Assembly: GCA_037447435.1 (NCBI GenBank)
Contig: JBBIGR010000006.1
Location: 94,136 to 158,135 of the forward strand
DNA: 64,000 nt
DNA from: Fibrobacteria bacterium
GTDB lineage: Bacteria > Fibrobacterota > Chitinivibrionia > Chitinivibrionales > FEN-1185
Direction of reading: 5' to 3'
Below the pieces are notes generated by a model. The model was not told the DNA's origin and ran no database searches. It saw only the letters and a program-made list of their open reading frames with translations. This document shows positions 8,626 through 45,608 of the stretch, in pieces. Position numbers and translations under genes: made by a program. Positions within the stretch are counted from its first letter, which is position 1. Each line of letters starts with the position of its first letter.

Positions 8626-11600
8626 TTACTGAATAATGCGAACCATTTTCTGAATTCTTCCGCTTTGCGTGTTCAACCTGAGCATATACATCCCTGCCGG
8701 TAAACTGGTAAGAACAGCGTTAGGACCAATTGAGCCCGTAGCCACGATGTTTTTAACCAATGCACCTTTAACAGAATACATCGCAAGTTCATAGGAACCC
8801 GACGCAGGAAGTATGAATTGGATTTCATGCGAATTGACCGATGTCACATCGAGCTTATATTCCCGCATGTGTCGCGTTTGCACAACGTCGGTTGGCAGCG
8901 GTGCGGAAGCACCCATAGAAGCAAGGACACCGTAAACCTTGAATTCGAAAAGAGAATAACCGTAGGCGGTAGTACGCGCCGTACCGTTCATCCGGATATA
9001 CCGTGCGGAACCGCTTAGATTGGTGATATCGTCGGTACGCGCGCCGGTCGCCATATTCGTTTTGGTCGAAATGGCCGACCAGGTGGAACCATCGGTCGAC
9101 ACATCGATCGTGTAGTTCTTGGCGGAAGCAGCTTCCCATGTAAGTGTCACGCGGCTGATAGTATAGGTTGCGCCCAAATCAATGCGAATCCATTGCGGAT
9201 CGCTGAACAGGCTGGCCCAGCGGGTTGTCGAATTGCCGTCGTTGACATTGGATGCTTTGAGAAGCGTGCCGTTATTGGTTTCCTCACTCGATGCCAAAGC
9301 AGTTTTACCTTGCCCTATTTCAACGGGTGCCGGTACCGCAGCGGCAACGTCGAGGTAATTCAGGTTGAACCCGCCGGTGGTCATATTCATTTTTAACAAA
9401 TGATACCCCGCCGTAAGCGTTACCCCCTTGACCGGCAGGTCTTTCCAAACCTGATAGCCGGACGCGTCGGTAGAGGTGAAGGTTCCGATCGTTGCGCCGT
9501 CCACGGTCACGGTCATGGTCTTTGTGCCTGTTCCGCCGCAGGCCATTCTCGCGGTAAGGTCATAGGTTCCCGCCGCGGTAACATTGACATCATAGGCAAG
9601 CCACTCGCCTGCCGAAGTCCAACCGACATCGTACCCCCCGCCGGCATCCTGGGTGGCTTCGATATCCACATTGTCTGTTTTGTAAACGTTTCCGGAATTG
9701 CCCGTCGTCAGATCGTGATAGCCGACCCCTTCGCCGCCGGCATTGTAATCTTCGGCCTGGATGCGCCCCGGTAAAACGACGCCTTTTATGCCGTCGTTGT
9801 CGACAATGGTCAGCGTGGCCGTTGCCGGACTGCCCAAGATTGCCCCGCCGCTCACGGCGCTCAAGGTCAAATTCACGGTTTCATTGCTTTCCACCGCGGC
9901 ATCGTCCGTGATAGGCACGGTAAAGCTTTGACTTGTTACCCCTGCCGCAAACGTGAGCGTACCTGATACCGCGGCGTAATCCGACCCTGCGGTTGCGGTC
10001 CCGTTTGACGTTGCGTAATTGACCGTAACGGATCCGGTGCTGCCGCCCGTACGGTTAACCGTGATCGTTGCGGTACCGGCGTTTTCGTTGACAGAATAAG
10101 ACGTATTGCTGAATGCGAGCGTTCCGGGGACCGGGGTGCTTTTCCCGTAGACCTCGAACGAGTACAGTGAATAGCCATAGGTCGTCGTGCGGACGGTTCC
10201 GCTCATGCGAATATAGCGGGCAGAAGTCGCCAGATCGCTGATGTCGTCTGTCCGGGCTCCGGCAGCCATATTGGTTTTCGTCGATACCGTGGTCCAGGCG
10301 GAACCATCGCCCGACACATCGATGGTGTAATTCTTTGCAGACGCAGCTTCCCAATAGAGAACAACGCGATTAATGGTATTGATTGCGCCCAAATCGATTT
10401 TAATCCATTGCGGATCGGCATACGCGCTCGACCAACGAGTGGTACCATTCCCATCGACGGCATTGGCGGGAATATTGGTGGTGTTTTCATTGCTCGACGA
10501 TGTCACGGCCTTTCCACGCGCAAGGTCGGTCACTCCGTCATTGTCGATAAAAACCAGTTCGATTCCCGTGCCTGTTGCGGGATTGAGGTTTCTGCTGTAT
10601 TGACGGGCTGCGGCATTGTTCCAATGTTCGCAAACGCCAAGACTTGCCAACCGCGTCGTGTTGCTGCTGTGATTGGGATCATAAAAGGTCCCGGAGGGAG
10701 GATTATCGGCCTTAGCTCCTTCGATGAGGTAATCCTCGACTCCCGCCATTTGCGGGTATTTTCGGCTGTCGCCGTCGAGCTGCATGAGATCGAACATAAC
10801 GCTTTCGAGCGCGATCGGGTCCTGGGACCCGAACAAGCTCGACGTCCAGTCGTTGTAAAACGGAAAGGTTGTCCATTTACGGGGCGACACATCGTCGGGA
10901 TGCGCCCCGCTGTACAATCCGTCAACGAGACACAGCATTGTTTTTCCGCCGAGCTGGGCATGGCCGAGTAAATCCACCAAAACGCGATATTTTCCGGAAC
11001 CGGATTGATTGACCGGTAAGGATGTGTGCAGGTCATAATATCCGCTTTGTCCGGGCAGGCGATATAAAGAACCGAAATGGTTTTTTGCCACGCCCGTAAA
11101 TCCCGCCATTGAATGACTCTTGAAATTTGAAAAATTGATGAGGTAGGTGGCGTCGACATAATGCTGCGGGATATAATCCTGCGTAATGCCTGTAGGACGG
11201 GAGCTGAAATACATGGGAACGGACGACTTTGTCACCTTTGTCCTGCCGTTTGTTCCCTGATAATCCATATATTTGATATTCGGGAATTCGGCATGAACGT
11301 AATTGTAATATTCGTTGGGAAACAGGCAAATCGGGTCGCCGATCGCGATATCGGATTGCGCGACGCCGACCACGTTGACAAGCTGACGGAAAAGAGCCAT
11401 CATCATCATCGGGGACGTATTCATGTAATCGATTTTATTGACAAGGCTATAGGTGGATGTGCTTACGTTTCCTTCGGAGTAAATGCAGCCGACCATGTTC
11501 GCTTTAATTGCGATTTTTTCTCCCGCAGTATACCCGACATTACCTCTGCCATGCGTCGAATTGTAATAGCGGATAATCGCATCCCATGCCGCAGCATCGC

Positions 11601-12114
11601 TTGTTTTGCCCGTGAGCGATTGCAAAGTTTGAGACATCATTTTATCGACAGTCGCCTGGTCGGTATGCGAAGTTTCCCACAAATGTCCATTGCCGACGCC
11701 AGCCCAATTCGTGCTCTTTGAGTCATGCGTCCAAACGACGCGGCCGGGCATTGTTCCTTTTGCTGTTCCTACCGGTGCATTTGGCGTAGCAAGCGTTGCG
11801 GCCAAAGCAGGTTTGGACGGAGTGGTGAAAAAAATAGCGCCGAGAACAGCACCCATTAACAGACACCCTGTTGCAACAAGATAACGGGTTTGTTGAAAAG
11901 CCTTACGGGCTTTTTTGAAAAAAACCAAAGAGGAAAGGCTTCCGATCGTCCAAAGAATAAAGGTTGTGGCAATCGGTGCTGCTGCCCGAACGCAAGGATA
12001 ATTGATCCTGCTTGGTTTTGCGATAATACGCACTAAAATCCACACAAGAGAACCAAAACCTAACGTTGAAAAAAGAACAGACATCACAAAGTTATGCTTT
12101 TTGCGCATAAACAA
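8626..12114 (-). CDS. DUF362-domain protein with CBM32(F5/8)-Calx-beta-CBM6-like-CBM32 modules and CTD
   Basis: KIAIKAN and INFSNFKSH..GFTGVAKNHFG (DUF362); two DGN.TTRW.S...PQW..IDLG domains; TATAGSDY..GTLTFAAG (Calx-beta); RIQAEDY..GEWLAY (CBM6-like); GMYMLRL CTD. Start is TTG 12114 or ATG 12108. Confidence 0.82.
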   Translation of the reverse strand: MFMRKKHNFVMSVLFSTLGFGSLVWILVRIIAKPSRINYPCVRAAAPIATTFILWTIGSLSSLVFFKKARKAFQQTRYLVATGCLLMGAVLGAIFFTTPSKPALAATLATPNAPVGTAKGTMPGRVVWTHDSKSTNWAGVGNGHLWETSHTDQATVDKMMSQTLQSLTGKTSDAAAWDAIIRYYNSTHGRGNVGYTAGEKIAIKANMVGCIYSEGNVSTSTYSLVNKIDYMNTSPMMMMALFRQLVNVVGVAQSDIAIGDPICLFPNEYYNYVHAEFPNIKYMDYQGTNGRTKVTKSSVPMYFSSRPTGITQDYIPQHYVDATYLINFSNFKSHSMAGFTGVAKNHFGSLYRLPGQSGYYDLHTSLPVNQSGSGKYRVLVDLLGHAQLGGKTMLCLVDGLYSGAHPDDVSPRKWTTFPFYNDWTSSLFGSQDPIALESVMFDLMQLDGDSRKYPQMAGVEDYLIEGAKADNPPSGTFYDPNHSSNTTRLASLGVCEHWNNAAARQYSRNLNPATGTGIELVFIDNDGVTDLARGKAVTSSSNENTTNIPANAVDGNGTTRWSSAYADPQWIKIDLGAINTINRVVLYWEAASAKNYTIDVSGDGSAWTTVSTKTNMAAGARTDDISDLATSARYIRMSGTVRTTTYGYSLYSFEVYGKSTPVPGTLAFSNTSYSVNENAGTATITVNRTGGSTGSVTVNYATSNGTATAGSDYAAVSGTLTFAAGVTSQSFTVPITDDAAVESNETVNLTLSAVSGGAILGSPATATLTIVDNDGIKGVVLPGRIQAEDYNAGGEGVGYHDLTTGNSGNVYKTDNVDIEATQDAGGGYDVGWTSAGEWLAYDVNVTAAGTYDLTARMACGGTGTKTMTVTVDGATIGTFTSTDASGYQVWKDLPVKGVTLTAGYHLLKMNMTTGGFNLNYLDVAAAVPAPVEIGQGKTALASSEETNNGTLLKASNVNDGNSTTRWASLFSDPQWIRIDLGATYTISRVTLTWEAASAKNYTIDVSTDGSTWSAISTKTNMATGARTDDITNLSGSARYIRMNGTARTTAYGYSLFEFKVYGVLASMGASAPLPTDVVQTRHMREYKLDVTSVNSHEIQFILPASGSYELAMYSVKGALVKNIVATGSIGPNAVLTSLPAGMYMLRLNTQSGRIQKMVRIIQ

Positions 12115-41312: not shown

Positions 41313-42161
41313 TTAAATGGTTTTCCCCGCAGCCCTGAGTTTTTTGCTTATTGCGAAAAATGCCGCAGCAACAAGCAACAGAGCGAGTAACGTCGCGATG
41401 ATGGACGGGCCTGCGGCAAAATCGGCGCGCAACGACAGTTCCAAACCTAATACGCATCCGGCAATACCGATAACCCAGCCGAAAACGACCCGTTGAATCG
41501 TTCCCTTTGCGCTGATCATCGCCGTTATCGCAGGAATGATAAGCAACGAGAAAATCAACAGCACGCCCGCAACCTTTACGGAAGATGTTACCACAATACC
41601 GAACGTCGCATAAAAAACTATATCCCACACCCACAGCCGGACTTTTTGCCGCGTCGCCATTTCGGGGTTTTCTGAAATGACAAACAGTTTTTTACGGCAA
41701 AAGAAATGAATGATGCCGACCGCGGCCACGATAGCGCCCAAGAGTGTAACGTCGTGCCATGAAACCGTTACTATTGTTCCAACCAGCATTTCTTTTATAT
41801 GCTCCGTTCCGGTGGCCGATTTCTCGAGCACCAAAAGCGACAAGGCGATGGCACCTGCATAGGAAATGCCGATCAAAGCTTCCATGGGCGCAACGTTCTG
41901 GCTTTTCCGCAAAAATGCAAACAGCACCGCGCCGCCAAGGGTAAATGCCAGGCTGATGCAGAAATTGAGCACCGGCGCATTTTCACCCCAACCCAGCAGG
42001 ATACCGACACTGGCGCCGAGCGCTGCAATTTGCGAAAGGGAAAGGTCGACGAATATAACGCCGCGCTGGACAACATGGTAACCGAAATAAGTATGGATAC
42101 CCGCCAAAATCAGGCAAACGGCCAACGCCGGCAGCATAAAGGAATAATGAAATATCATCAT
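41313..42161 (-). CDS. Metal ABC-3 family permease (ZnuB/MntB-like)
   Basis: GYHVVQRGVIFVDLSLSQIAALG, EALIG, GVLLIFSLLIIPA; multiple TM helices. Confidence 0.88.
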   Translation of the reverse strand: MMIFHYSFMLPALAVCLILAGIHTYFGYHVVQRGVIFVDLSLSQIAALGASVGILLGWGENAPVLNFCISLAFTLGGAVLFAFLRKSQNVAPMEALIGISYAGAIALSLLVLEKSATGTEHIKEMLVGTIVTVSWHDVTLLGAIVAAVGIIHFFCRKKLFVISENPEMATRQKVRLWVWDIVFYATFGIVVTSSVKVAGVLLIFSLLIIPAITAMISAKGTIQRVVFGWVIGIAGCVLGLELSLRADFAAGPSIIATLLALLLVAAAFFAISKKLRAAGKTI

Positions 42162-42163
42162 GA

Positions 42164-43063
42164 TTATTTTCCTTTGATGGATGTTGCTATTTGTGATATC
42201 GCGGCATCGAAATGATCGAAATACGATTTCGGCGACGCATCGGAACACGACGGCGGGCATTTGACTATTTGAATTCCGGTTTGCCTATTGAGAAACTTTG
42301 GGGCATCGTCTGAAAAATAGGGTTCCTGCAAAATGAACAAAGCCTTTTCGCGCTTAATTATTTCGACAAGCTCGGCGAGATGGTTCCCGGTTGGCGGAAT
42401 GCCGGGAAACGGTTCCACTTTTGCAATGATGGAAAACCCGAACGCATCGGCAAAATATGCCCAGGATGAATGATACGTAATGATTTTTCCCGATTTATAG
42501 GCCTGCAACGACGCTTTCCAACCCGCGATTTTTTGCAGGCATTCTTTTTTAAATTGTTCGAAACGCAACGAATAGGCCGCGCTATTTGCAGGATCAGTTT
42601 TTTGCAACCCGGCAAGGATATTTTGACCTATAATAATGCCGTTTTCGGGATTAAGCCAGTAATGGGGATTACCGAACGGATGCACATCTCCCATCGAGGC
42701 ATCGACTTTTCCCGCAGGTTTTTCGAGTACCGCAATCCCGCTCGAACAATCGATCACCAGAATGGAATTATTCCGCGACCCGTCGAGAATGGCATCGGAC
42801 CATTGGTCCAAGCCCAGGCCGCTTTTCAAATAGATACCCGCACGTGCGACCTTTGCCATATACGACGGAAAAACCTCAATGGAATGCGGATTCGAATTCG
42901 CAGCTGCAATTGCGGTCACTTCCACTTTGTCACCCCCGATATACGCGGCGATTGAGGCAAGGTCGGTAATCGCCGCAACGATACGGACCGGTGCGGCAAA
43001 ACCGGACATGCTCACCGTTAGAACCGCTATGAACCAGGCCGCTCGAATCGTTATCTTTTTCAT
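42164..43063 (-). CDS. Cluster A-I metal-binding periplasmic protein (ZnuA/TroA-like)
   Basis: NPH, DVHPFGNPHYWLNP and YHSSWAYF His ligands; signal peptide. Confidence 0.9.
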   Translation of the reverse strand: MKKITIRAAWFIAVLTVSMSGFAAPVRIVAAITDLASIAAYIGGDKVEVTAIAAANSNPHSIEVFPSYMAKVARAGIYLKSGLGLDQWSDAILDGSRNNSILVIDCSSGIAVLEKPAGKVDASMGDVHPFGNPHYWLNPENGIIIGQNILAGLQKTDPANSAAYSLRFEQFKKECLQKIAGWKASLQAYKSGKIITYHSSWAYFADAFGFSIIAKVEPFPGIPPTGNHLAELVEIIKREKALFILQEPYFSDDAPKFLNRQTGIQIVKCPPSCSDASPKSYFDHFDAAISQIATSIKGK

Positions 43064-43148: not shown

Positions 43149-44210
43149 TCAGAATTGATGCGCTTTATGCGGTCCCATACTGAACAGTAATTGCATTTCG
43201 ACCGTGTCGTCGGGGCGGCCGCCCGCATTAAACAAATGCTCAAACGCCAATCTGACCATGGTACTTTCCTCAAGCACTGAAAATCCCACAAACGGCTTGA
43301 GGCCGATGTTTGTGTCAGAGGCGTTCCCGGGAGCCTGATATTGCTCGTACAGAACGCCGGCATTGTAATGTCCTTGAAACTGGAAATCGGTGAACGCATA
43401 GAATCCCATACGATTTTCGGCCGTGACGCCCCCCGAAGAATCCCTATTACTTGCGTTCTTATACAACAATTCGGCCTGAAATACCGATTTGACAATTGGA
43501 GATATGGAACTTTTAATTTTAGCATCGGCTCCGATAACCGCGGATTTTGTCTTTGCAACCGGATCATTGGTCCCTTGCGTTGCCGACAAACCTATTTCGC
43601 ACGGCGTAATTTCGCCGATCATGAATGAATTGACAATGCGGCCAAGCCAGCCGAAATTTGCAGAATGCATTGCCGGGTGAAACGAATCACCCTGTAAAAG
43701 ATCGGCTGAAATAATCAGGGAATAGCTTTCCCCAACCGGGATAAGAGCTGATGCCTGCAGTGCCACGTCGTTAAAGCTTTCTTCACCGGGAAGCAGTCGG
43801 GCGATACCGGGATCCATCACATGAGGCGTGCTGATAAACGGATATGAATGCGGATGTGCGGGATTGAGGCGTCCGAAACCGAGCCGGTACTTCCCTGCCT
43901 TTAGCCCTAGGTTAAACGGCAGTCCCCGGATCAGCGATGCATAGGCTTCTTCGATTTCAATGGATTTTGTTCCCAAGGATAAAACAAACGCACCGTTTAC
44001 GTAGGGATTCAATGCCGCATCGAGCGCAAGCTCCGCCTCTCCCAACGCAAGTGTCGGCTTGTTTGGAACCGCCGCGGCACTATCGTTTGTATATTGACCG
44101 ATGACCTGGCCGATTGCGGAGATATCCGGATTGGTTACACCGGCAACCGCACTATGCCAAGCAAAAACGCCTATTGCAATAGATATCGCGAACCAGTTGA
44201 TTTTCAACAT
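43149..44210 (-). CDS. His-motif outer-membrane beta-barrel (putative metal porin)
   Basis: Signal peptide, NPDIS, IEEAY, KAGKYRLGFGRLNPAHPH, amphipathic strands, C-terminal GPHKAHQF; AGGAG RBS before ATG 44210. Confidence 0.75.
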   Translation of the reverse strand: MLKINWFAISIAIGVFAWHSAVAGVTNPDISAIGQVIGQYTNDSAAAVPNKPTLALGEAELALDAALNPYVNGAFVLSLGTKSIEIEEAYASLIRGLPFNLGLKAGKYRLGFGRLNPAHPHSYPFISTPHVMDPGIARLLPGEESFNDVALQASALIPVGESYSLIISADLLQGDSFHPAMHSANFGWLGRIVNSFMIGEITPCEIGLSATQGTNDPVAKTKSAVIGADAKIKSSISPIVKSVFQAELLYKNASNRDSSGGVTAENRMGFYAFTDFQFQGHYNAGVLYEQYQAPGNASDTNIGLKPFVGFSVLEESTMVRLAFEHLFNAGGRPDDTVEMQLLFSMGPHKAHQF

Positions 44211-44361
44211 GGTATTCTCCTGTAAAAAAGGTACATCACGAGCATCCGGTAAAAAGACAAATCGCCTCACCCGTTTCCTTGTATCCCTCTCGGGGTAAAT
44301 TCAGGAAGGCAAAGGGAAATGCTCTTTGAGACAAAACCGGACATGATTGAAAAAAAAGCGA

Positions 44362-44637
44362 CTAGCTATGAACAGGAGGAGCGCGGGTTTCATAAGCGGG
44401 TTTGCAGGATAGTAAGACGTACGTTCGCGTTTTAAGAGCAAGCGCGAGAATTAACAGAATAAATAAAGGGAGTACATTGACAACATTCGGTTCGAAGGAT
44501 TGTTGTTGGGAAATACACAGCGAACACGTATCATGATTACCGGTATCGAGATGAACATGGGTAGGCAATATAACTGCCAAATACAGGCAAAGAAAAACCG
44601 AGGTAAGCGATAAAAAATTTATTGAAACTTTGCGCAT
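44362..44637 (-). CDS. DUF2946-like leader peptide (HxH, CxxC, C-terminal RAPP)
   Basis: Hydrophobic N-terminus, HVHLDTGNHDTCSLC, second hydrophobic stretch, ends YETRAPPVHS*; first ORF of the metal operon. Confidence 0.75.
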   Translation of the reverse strand: MRKVSINFLSLTSVFLCLYLAVILPTHVHLDTGNHDTCSLCISQQQSFEPNVVNVLPLFILLILALALKTRTYVLLSCKPAYETRAPPVHS

Positions 44638-44801
44638 CGTGAGAAGCCGTCCGGCTAACATTGCCATTTAACAACCGCGTTTCAAAACAAGACCTGATTT
44701 AATATATATACATTCGTTTAAAATATTATTATCCATATTAAAAGATTTCGATTTAACTAATACATTTATTTGATACCACAGCGTCGTACCCTGGTATTTT
44801 C

Positions 44802-44842
44802 AAAACGAAACCTTCGCTTTTTGGAGCCAAAGGTTTCGTTTT
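44802..44842 (-). terminator. Intrinsic terminator after the LRR gene
   Basis: AAAACGAAACCTT-loop-AAGGTTTCGTTTT. Confidence 0.7.
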
Positions 44843-44855
44843 ATATGCGTATTAT

Positions 44856-45608
44856 CTATTCGAAATCCTCGTCGTTATTTGCCTTAACCCACTCTTTCAA
44901 TTCGGCATTCATTTTTCGCAAGCCCGCATAGTCGACATCGAACCTTTTAAGCTTGAGACCCGTAACGGTTTGCGGTAAAGTACTTAAAGGGTTTTCTTTT
45001 AGAAATAGGCTTTTAAGCGAATACATCCCCCCAAGCTCCGTCCCCAATGCTTTCAGACGGTTATTGCTTAAGTCAAGGAATTCAAGCGCCTTTAGGTTTT
45101 GCGTTGTTTCCGGAAAATCGCGAATGAGGTTTCCTCGAAGGTTTAAATACGACAAATTTTTTAGATTACCGATAGACAAGGGCACGGTTTCGAGCCTATT
45201 GTTTTGTACGGAAAGATATTTCAAATTTTGAAGGTTGCCGATTTCATCCGGTAAGACCGAAAGGATATTACCGTCGAGTATTAATTTCCGAAGGGATTTT
45301 AATTGGCCTATTTCTTTGGGAAGACTTTGCATGGGTTTGAAATTATAGACCGTGTCATCGACACCTCGCTGTTCCGGATCGGTTCTATCGACTTCCGTTT
45401 TCACTGAAAAATTGAGTGCGACCACGTTGTCGCCGTCAAAATCCGCAATTTTCCAAATTCCCTGCTCTCCAATCCCGATTTTTTCGAGCATGTCTTTAAC
45501 AATAGAATAATCGTTTACGAGCGTTACGGCCTGATTTGATTCTTCGGCAAATACACCCACGGACGTTACAAACACTCCGACAATAGCAGACTCGAATATT
45601 TTTAGCAT
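44856..45608 (-). CDS. Exported leucine-rich-repeat protein
   Basis: Signal peptide; about six 23-aa LPxEIGxLxxLxxLxLxxNxL repeats; AGGAGG RBS. Confidence 0.9.
   Translation of the reverse strand: MLKIFESAIVGVFVTSVGVFAEESNQAVTLVNDYSIVKDMLEKIGIGEQGIWKIADFDGDNVVALNFSVKTEVDRTDPEQRGVDDTVYNFKPMQSLPKEIGQLKSLRKLILDGNILSVLPDEIGNLQNLKYLSVQNNRLETVPLSIGNLKNLSYLNLRGNLIRDFPETTQNLKALEFLDLSNNRLKALGTELGGMYSLKSLFLKENPLSTLPQTVTGLKLKRFDVDYAGLRKMNAELKEWVKANNDEDFE

Follow-up and report, generated by a model that had tools for sequence, protein, structure and literature searches.

The locus described here raises the question of how a ribosome working on a small leader ORF could govern the translation of an operon whose first AUG lies 151 nt beyond the leader's stop codon. 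It is found in a 64,000-nt stretch of DNA (hereafter the window) from a Fibrobacteria bacterium (GenBank assembly GCA_037447435.1, contig JBBIGR010000006.1). The initial annotation had proposed that the codons of a C-terminal Arg-Ala-Pro-Pro (RAPP) motif double as the anti-Shine-Dalgarno (anti-SD) of the next gene in a long-range stem enclosing two further helices, and that a ribosome paused at the motif would free the ribosome-binding site (RBS) by the logic of SecM and MifM.

All the genes concerned lie on the minus strand. The leader ORF (44362..44667; 101 aa from its first ATG, with alternative starts at 44661 and 44637) encodes a putative arrest peptide of the DUF2946/CruR/CutF-like type and is followed by genes for an outer-membrane beta-barrel of 353 aa (43149..44210), a ZnuA-family (cluster A-I) metal-binding protein (42164..43063; PF01297, E 2.5e-47), which scores below every NCBIfam equivalog cut-off, and an ABC-3 (ZnuB-like) permease (41313..42161; PF00950, E 7e-33). 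The barrel is without a Pfam family match, and its model (AlphaFold, pLDDT 90.5) has a porin-like fold, with porins as its nearest solved folds in Foldseek (chitoporin, Omp32, DcaP; TM about 0.6). A GTG at 44270 was considered as its start and ruled out, since homologue alignments begin at the ATG at 44210. The barrel represents an unannotated porin family of 635 homologues with two conserved His motifs, one of them at the very C-terminus, and judged by these sequences the family is a candidate metal-selective porin. In 15 of 15 first-neighbour proteins scanned it is ZnuA that follows the barrel; no ATPase gene follows the permease in the window, and a scan of 32 neighbour proteins found none.

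The leader is probably the start of its own transcript, because a putative terminator (44802..44842, no strand assigned), a perfect inverted repeat of 13 bp whose ends carry A/T runs, sits between the upstream LRR gene and the leader. No Zur/Fur box is evident in the AT-rich region upstream of the leader, and the genome has one Fur-family gene. Rfam covariance models gave only two matches over 43900-45000, both far below gathering scores. A U8 tract (44350-44357, minus strand) comes directly after the leader stop, behind a 3-bp mini-hairpin; as an intrinsic terminator it was rejected, since it does not score as one. T5 runs at most 25 nt from the leader stop occur in only 7 of 116 loci, six of which are among the closest relatives.

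The leader is very probably an arrest-type regulator of the porin operon. Its N-terminus is basic and then hydrophobic (judged by eye from the alignment), with a signal- or anchor-like segment at about residues 17-34 (44566..44619), and further on come a likely metal site, His37-x-His39…His45-x-x-Cys48-x-x-Cys51 (44515..44559), and, 43 residues from the CxxC, the RAPP motif itself (Arg95-Pro98, CGC GCU CCU CCU, 44374..44385), after which only three codons remain. The 3' end of the ORF (44388-44362) thus reads ACC CGC GCU CCU CCU GUU CAU AGC UAG, for Thr-Arg-Ala-Pro-Pro-Val-His-Ser-stop. Only Met1, both Cys, the Arg and both Pro are invariant in 35 aligned leaders, with His37 nearly so. An R[AGS]PP leader ORF lies upstream in 175 of the 189 loci with a barrel match; the motif is RAPP in 87, RGPP in 23 and RSPP in 6 of 116 loci, a tail of two residues follows it in 78 of 116, and the spacing between CxxC and RAPP is tight in 99/116 loci with CxxC (49-52 residues from CxxC to the first Pro, 10th-90th percentile of 99 loci). 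The window's peptide is without a match to Pfam PF11162 (DUF2946) at E<=1, and 17 of the 35 aligned homologues match it at E<=0.1 (best 3.3e-6), so that it is the motifs and the homologues, rather than the Pfam score of the peptide, that mark the leader as DUF2946-like. PF11162 was also sought, for a test on proteobacterial DUF2946 leaders, in two sets of genomes, neither of which had a hit (0 of 5, 0 of 52), and a plasmid search gave three weak records. Like the CruR/CutF leaders, this one is shorter than 150 aa, probably first in its operon and co-directional with metal-homeostasis genes, and its motif stands where RAPP/RGPP arrest peptides have theirs, close to the stop codon of a small, putatively exported protein. 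No clear Shine-Dalgarno precedes any of its three possible starts (44640-44700).

Leaders of this kind also occur elsewhere. The same genome has a second RAPP/CxxC leader (L221, G000:C74, about 11530-11784), which precedes a 451-aa distant barrel paralogue and for which no SD switch is predicted (opening cost 3.1 -> 3.5 kcal/mol). In Fibrobacter-type genomes (L222-L261) the same leader type stands before a small His-rich lipoprotein of unknown family, and a further subgroup (L066, L149, L153, L156-L164, L174, L177, L183) has Cys-x-Cys plus His in place of CxxC, with the same barrel family downstream.

The complementarity on which the initial annotation was built is exact. The anti-SD strand of the outer helix (H1), CUCCUGU (44372..44378), is made of bases 2-3 of Pro97, the whole of Pro98 and bases 1-2 of Val99, and it faces ACAGGAG (44217..44223), the porin SD, which sits 6 nt before the AUG at 44210 and is complementary to the genome's own 16S 3' end (contig C75). 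The two inner helices were likewise located correctly: the 5' strands of H2 (44347-44342) and H3 (44341-44336) together span 44336..44347, their 3' strands (H3 44250-44245, H2 44240-44235) span 44235..44250, and H2 has one G-U pair. All three helices are in the predicted MFE and centroid structures, with pair probabilities over six window choices of 0.67-1.0 for H1, 0.35-0.66 for H2 and 0.95-1.0 for H3, and H1 is lost when the Pro-Pro-Val stretch is blocked, so that in silico a sequestering stem overlaps the footprint of the stall. The rest of the spacer is predicted to form a long irregular inner hairpin (44251..44327), and a hairpin of -7.6 kcal/mol, which a ribosome on the leader would leave untouched, is predicted over the porin start codon (44192..44213). 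The spacer has a folding z of -1.29 (25 of 200 shuffles equally stable); for the whole region z is -0.61 over 44200-44400 (47/200 shuffles as good) and -1.99 over 44185-44385 (7/200).

The 7-bp match by itself is weak, and only modestly beyond chance at this locus. The genome has 1,131 SD-bearing starts, and 20% of them equal or surpass the cognate RBS in pairing with the Pro-Pro stretch, as do 36% of the 573 with GGAG, because CCUCCU is a universal anti-SD, as described in PMC12697547; when the spacer is dinucleotide-shuffled, H1 still forms (P>0.5) in 136 of 150 cases. The choice of codons is nevertheless uncommon: the long ORFs of the genome hold 1,480 Pro-Pro pairs, of which 4.7% are CCU-CCU, and none of the other 15 synonymous codings is predicted to be as repressive (RBS opening 11.9 vs 5.6-8.5 kcal/mol).

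The family gives better evidence for a switch. From 190 loci we dropped 1 without a barrel match, 14 without a leader (several of them cut by contig ends), 11 with an unmatched barrel N-terminus, 6 without a start, 33 redundant and 1 unusable, which left a non-redundant set of 124. A barrel tree, from which 8 paralogue loci were left out, arranged the other 116 in 58 independent sister pairs. A second set of 70 further loci lost 28 as redundant, 2 without a next ORF and 1 without a leader; a locus from the unpublished genome G199 was left out, as were two long-spacer loci from the computation of opening energies.

The first Pro codon of the motif (44377-44379 in the window) is CCU in 74 of 124 loci, where 13 are expected from the Pro codons of the barrels and about 24 (summed) from first-Pro-of-pair backgrounds. 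CCC is avoided there (11 vs about 40 expected), the excess of CCU is found in GC-rich genomes (31/48 vs 2.9 expected), and it recurs in the second set (24/39 vs 6 expected). We first took this enrichment as proof of an anti-SD, but do not count it for the switch, since CCU is as frequent beside an RBS without GGAG/GAGG (20/33) as beside one with it (75/122) and persists in the Fibrobacter-type loci (9/15, vs 6/74 of downstream Pro codons), whose RBSs are mostly without a GGAG core. The bias possibly reflects a constraint of the RAPP arrest on P-site decoding or slippage.

A sister-swap test, in which RBSs are exchanged between sister pairs, separates co-evolution from the built-in match between Pro codons and an SD. 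In the stretch from -3 to +18 relative to the first Pro, the leader paired better with its own RBS in 38 of the 58 pairs, worse in 15, and equally in 5 (Wilcoxon p 1.7e-5); p fell below 0.01 in only 3 of 22 stretches along the sequence, all of them overlapping the segment from Pro to stop, and was at least 0.099 in the other 19. The asymmetry is present in low-GC pairs (16 vs 9), in high-GC pairs (22 vs 6) and in the 34 GC-matched pairs (23 vs 8). It comes from the codons that follow Pro-Pro (+6..+18, 38 vs 12) and not from the Pro codons themselves (0..+6), which show no co-variation with the SD (14 vs 14 pairs) and whose wobble bases partner it in 31 of 91 GGAG loci against 28.3 expected. 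In the same 91 loci, and in the register proposed by the initial annotation, the first and second base of the post-Pro-Pro codon form Watson-Crick matches with the bases 5' of the SD 44 and 30 times, against 33.5 and 20.7 expected (GC-binned permutation, p 0.005 each, uncorrected for kinship). In 68 of 96 loci the barrel RBS is a better pairing partner for the Pro stretch than the RBS of the next gene, and in 25 a worse one. Part of the sister-swap asymmetry may be compositional, since some controls lean the same way: an upstream stretch of 14 nt (-60..-46) gave 37 vs 17, a coding stretch 33 vs 16 and the RBS of the next gene 21 vs 12, all with smaller mean effects. In five Fibrobacter-type loci (L222, L227-L230) the codons right after Pro-Pro match their different, GAGAG-type SD, and the seven Fibrobacter-type sister pairs decide nothing (4 vs 1, control 5 vs 0). 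Covariation, by which the initial annotation proposed to check its stem, is found in the codons after Pro-Pro, which track their own RBS, and not in the Pro wobble bases.

Predicted folds are less uniform. Of 124 loci, only 32 are predicted to pair the SD with the Pro core and 58 to pair it with a wider footprint (-12..+17); for the closest 18, counting the window, the numbers are 4 and 7. With -8..+15 covered, the SD is predicted to become cheaper to open by more than 1 kcal/mol in 67 of 114 loci (mean 1.9), as against 22 (mean 0.2) with the next 23 nt covered instead. The spacers tend to be more stable than their shuffles (z<-1 in 73/108).

The closest homologue (L111, 77% barrel identity) tells which parts of the structure are kept. 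It has H1, lengthened to 10 bp, around a spacer that is unrelated to the window's in sequence and fold, and H2 and H3 are not conserved in it, which makes H1 the kept element and H2 and H3 an interchangeable scaffold. A search of 81 genomes at the DNA level returned only short weak matches to the spacer and no homologue, so that covariation on H2 and H3 could not be counted. As the spacer shuffles showed, H1 forms in silico without them, and they lie 32 nt and more downstream of the stall, outside the cover of the stalled ribosome. We reject H2 and H3 as conserved elements. The hairpins at the porin start also differ in sequence between the window and L111.

We lean, with moderate confidence, towards reading the leader and H1 as a stall-operated translational switch of which H1 is the main output at this locus. 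Published toeprints and structures of RAPP stalls, as described in PMC10951233 and, for CruR, in PMC12992588, place both Pro codons in the P and A sites, and by analogy arrest is predicted here with Pro97 in the P site and Pro98 in the A site; a ribosome so placed has the entire 5' strand of H1 beneath it, which upholds the idea that a paused ribosome would cover the anti-SD. That the pause would also free the RBS is predicted for the SD, whose computed opening cost falls from 8.2 to 2.7 kcal/mol when the anti-SD stretch is blocked, but only in part for the whole initiation region (11.9 to 9.4 kcal/mol, predicted), because the start-codon hairpin stays and may cap expression in the ON state. 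A ribosome arrested on Pro97/Pro98 would keep the anti-SD strand occupied, so that translation of the porin and metal-ABC genes could proceed; with no ribosome on the Pro codons, H1 would close over the folded spacer of about 150 nt and mask the porin SD. In B. subtilis, pairing with a distant anti-SD is reported to repress translation in vivo (PMC12697547). The sensor would be the His/CxxC segment of the nascent chain, which lies about 45 residues away from the stall and has probably crossed the membrane: under metal shortage the arrest would be kept and uptake stay on, and metal bound at the exported His/CxxC would bring release and closure of H1. We infer this direction, the polarity of CruR with an output of the CutF/SecM type, because an importer operon requires arrest under shortage and release on metal binding. 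The metal would most likely be Zn, our best guess because of the ZnuA and ABC-3 neighbours, with Mn, Fe, Ni or Co possible; the PDB matches of the binding protein mix Zn, Mn and Fe binders. The arrest may be specific to the ribosomes of certain species (PMC7897499, as far as its text describes).

A different output is conceivable for the same leader. In CruR, as described in PMC9426467, where the leader likewise precedes an importer across a spacer of 162 nt, the mechanism shown is Rho-dependent termination: the C-rich site at which Rho would load, in the last part of the leader, is kept covered by the stalled ribosome, and once the ribosome is released Rho can terminate transcription in the spacer. 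At the present locus SD pairing would then be secondary, or a by-product of C/U-rich codons, although both devices can coexist. The genome has a rho gene, in the 124 loci C is preferred to G as the third base of the last 14 leader codons, the first fifth of the spacer has 36% C vs 24% G, and the CCU bias does not depend on SD type, all of which fits such attenuation. The CruR rut site is, however, unstructured, whereas the spacers here are more stable than their shuffles, and nothing in Rho loading would lead one to expect post-Pro-Pro codons that track their own RBS, so that we regard Rho attenuation as unlikely, if worth keeping in view. The same localised co-variation weighs on the idea that H1 is incidental, any CCU-CCU pair being complementary to a standard SD, with CCU kept for reasons of decoding or stalling and the leader coupled to the operon in some other way (other helices, mRNA stability). 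This idea accounts well for the unspecific match (20-37% of own-genome RBSs) and the persistence of H1 in spacer shuffles, for CCU at the first Pro of Fibrobacter-type loci, and for the 14 of 18 close loci without predicted Pro-core pairing. It sits badly with co-variation confined to the segment from Pro to stop, with the 10-bp H1 of L111 and with the five Fibrobacter-type loci in which the anti-SD has moved to the post-Pro-Pro codons and matches a different SD, and we hold it to be rather improbable.

The polarity might also be the reverse. CutF behaves in that way with the same RNA logic (PMC9973294; bioRxiv 2025.02.05.636593, as far as their texts describe), and here metal binding would prolong the arrest and induce the operon for metal excess or cofactor loading; the operon is without an ATPase gene, which leaves import a putative function. 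Yet the genes code for parts of an uptake system (porin, ZnuA-family binding protein, ABC-3 permease), and inducing these under metal excess would do harm, which makes the reverse polarity very improbable in our view.

If the preferred reading, a stall-operated switch with H1 as output, is carried over to the family, RAPP leaders of the whole porin-ZnuA family, in Fibrobacterota, Elusimicrobiota, Eisenbacteria and others, would use their stall-site codons as a long-range anti-SD, an extension that we make tentatively and think possible rather than probable. Pro-Pro would give a constant core that pairs with the universal SD, the two codons after it would adapt the match to the cognate RBS, and the spacer would be a freely changing folded scaffold. 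One motif would then serve both as arrest signal and as RNA switch, in a zinc-type translational sensor placed outside the cell, and silent mutations could probe the switch while leaving the peptide unchanged. Long-spacer RAPP leaders without a local hairpin (ApcA, ApdA, ApdP and many DUF2946 leaders) would have an explanation for how they reach their targets: for the first three PMC7897499 reports that no SD-sequestering hairpin was found, and the gap in coupling that it and PMC9973294 leave, as far as their texts go, would be simply answered. Metal-sensing arrest peptides would extend from copper to ZnuA-type uptake, and an unannotated porin family would be given a function. Since it is already established that a stall can free an SD, the gain would be a new arrangement and not a new principle.

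Known systems resemble the locus in different respects. In the literature covered, mostly the text of open papers, we found no statement that RAPP codons serve as an anti-SD. The stem-loops drawn for cutF-cutO and uDF_RQH-secDF2 may themselves involve the Pro codons, in which case the arrangement would be less new. Gill et al. (PMC12697547, as described there) show that a short anti-SD hundreds of bases away can pair with an SD and block initiation in vivo; their stretches are engineered, mostly downstream of the RBS, and act as a constraint, not as a natural switch gated by a ribosome. The comparison with SecM and MifM made at the outset holds for the device, an SD-sequestering stem under a stalled ribosome, and less well for kinship, the closer relatives being the metal-sensing leaders CruR and CutF. 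As described in PMC7897499 and PMC10987492, stalled ribosomes block such stems in SecM-secA, MifM-yidC2, VemP and uDF_RQH-secDF2, with related RAG/P and RAP/P arrest chemistry (PMC10951233); these peptides are described as monitoring Sec or YidC, controlling translocase genes and having no metal site, whereas the genes downstream here are a porin and parts of a metal ABC system. CutF-cutO of Rhodobacter capsulatus, as described in PMC9973294, shares a DUF2946-like leader, exported in CutF and putatively so here, and a stall that frees an SD held by an anti-SD, as would be the case here. CutF differs in its CxxxC and PPP motifs and in that it stalls when Cu is bound and controls detoxification (PMC9973294; bioRxiv 10.1101/2025.02.05.636593); its stem-loop is described as intergenic, unlike the present anti-SD, which lies in the stall-site codons and reaches across 151 nt, and in the text of PMC9973294 its authors expect stem-loop unfolding for short spacers only. 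CruR (Bp2923, DUF2946/PF11162), upstream of bfrG in Bordetella pertussis (PMC9426467; arrest shown in PMC12992588), comes nearest in layout, as far as these texts describe it, with an export signal (putative here), a CxxC about 45 residues before a C-terminal RAPP (43 here), a long spacer (162 nt, here 151), an outer-membrane importer downstream and arrest expected to mean uptake on. It acts through Rho-dependent termination and writes its RAPP in frequent codons, and the present locus differs from it in the extra His, the porin and ZnuA/ABC-3 genes, the CCU codons and the predicted SD-masking helix. The locus is thus CutF- and SecM-like in its output and CruR-like in its layout and expected direction, and it is no monitor of Sec or YidC.
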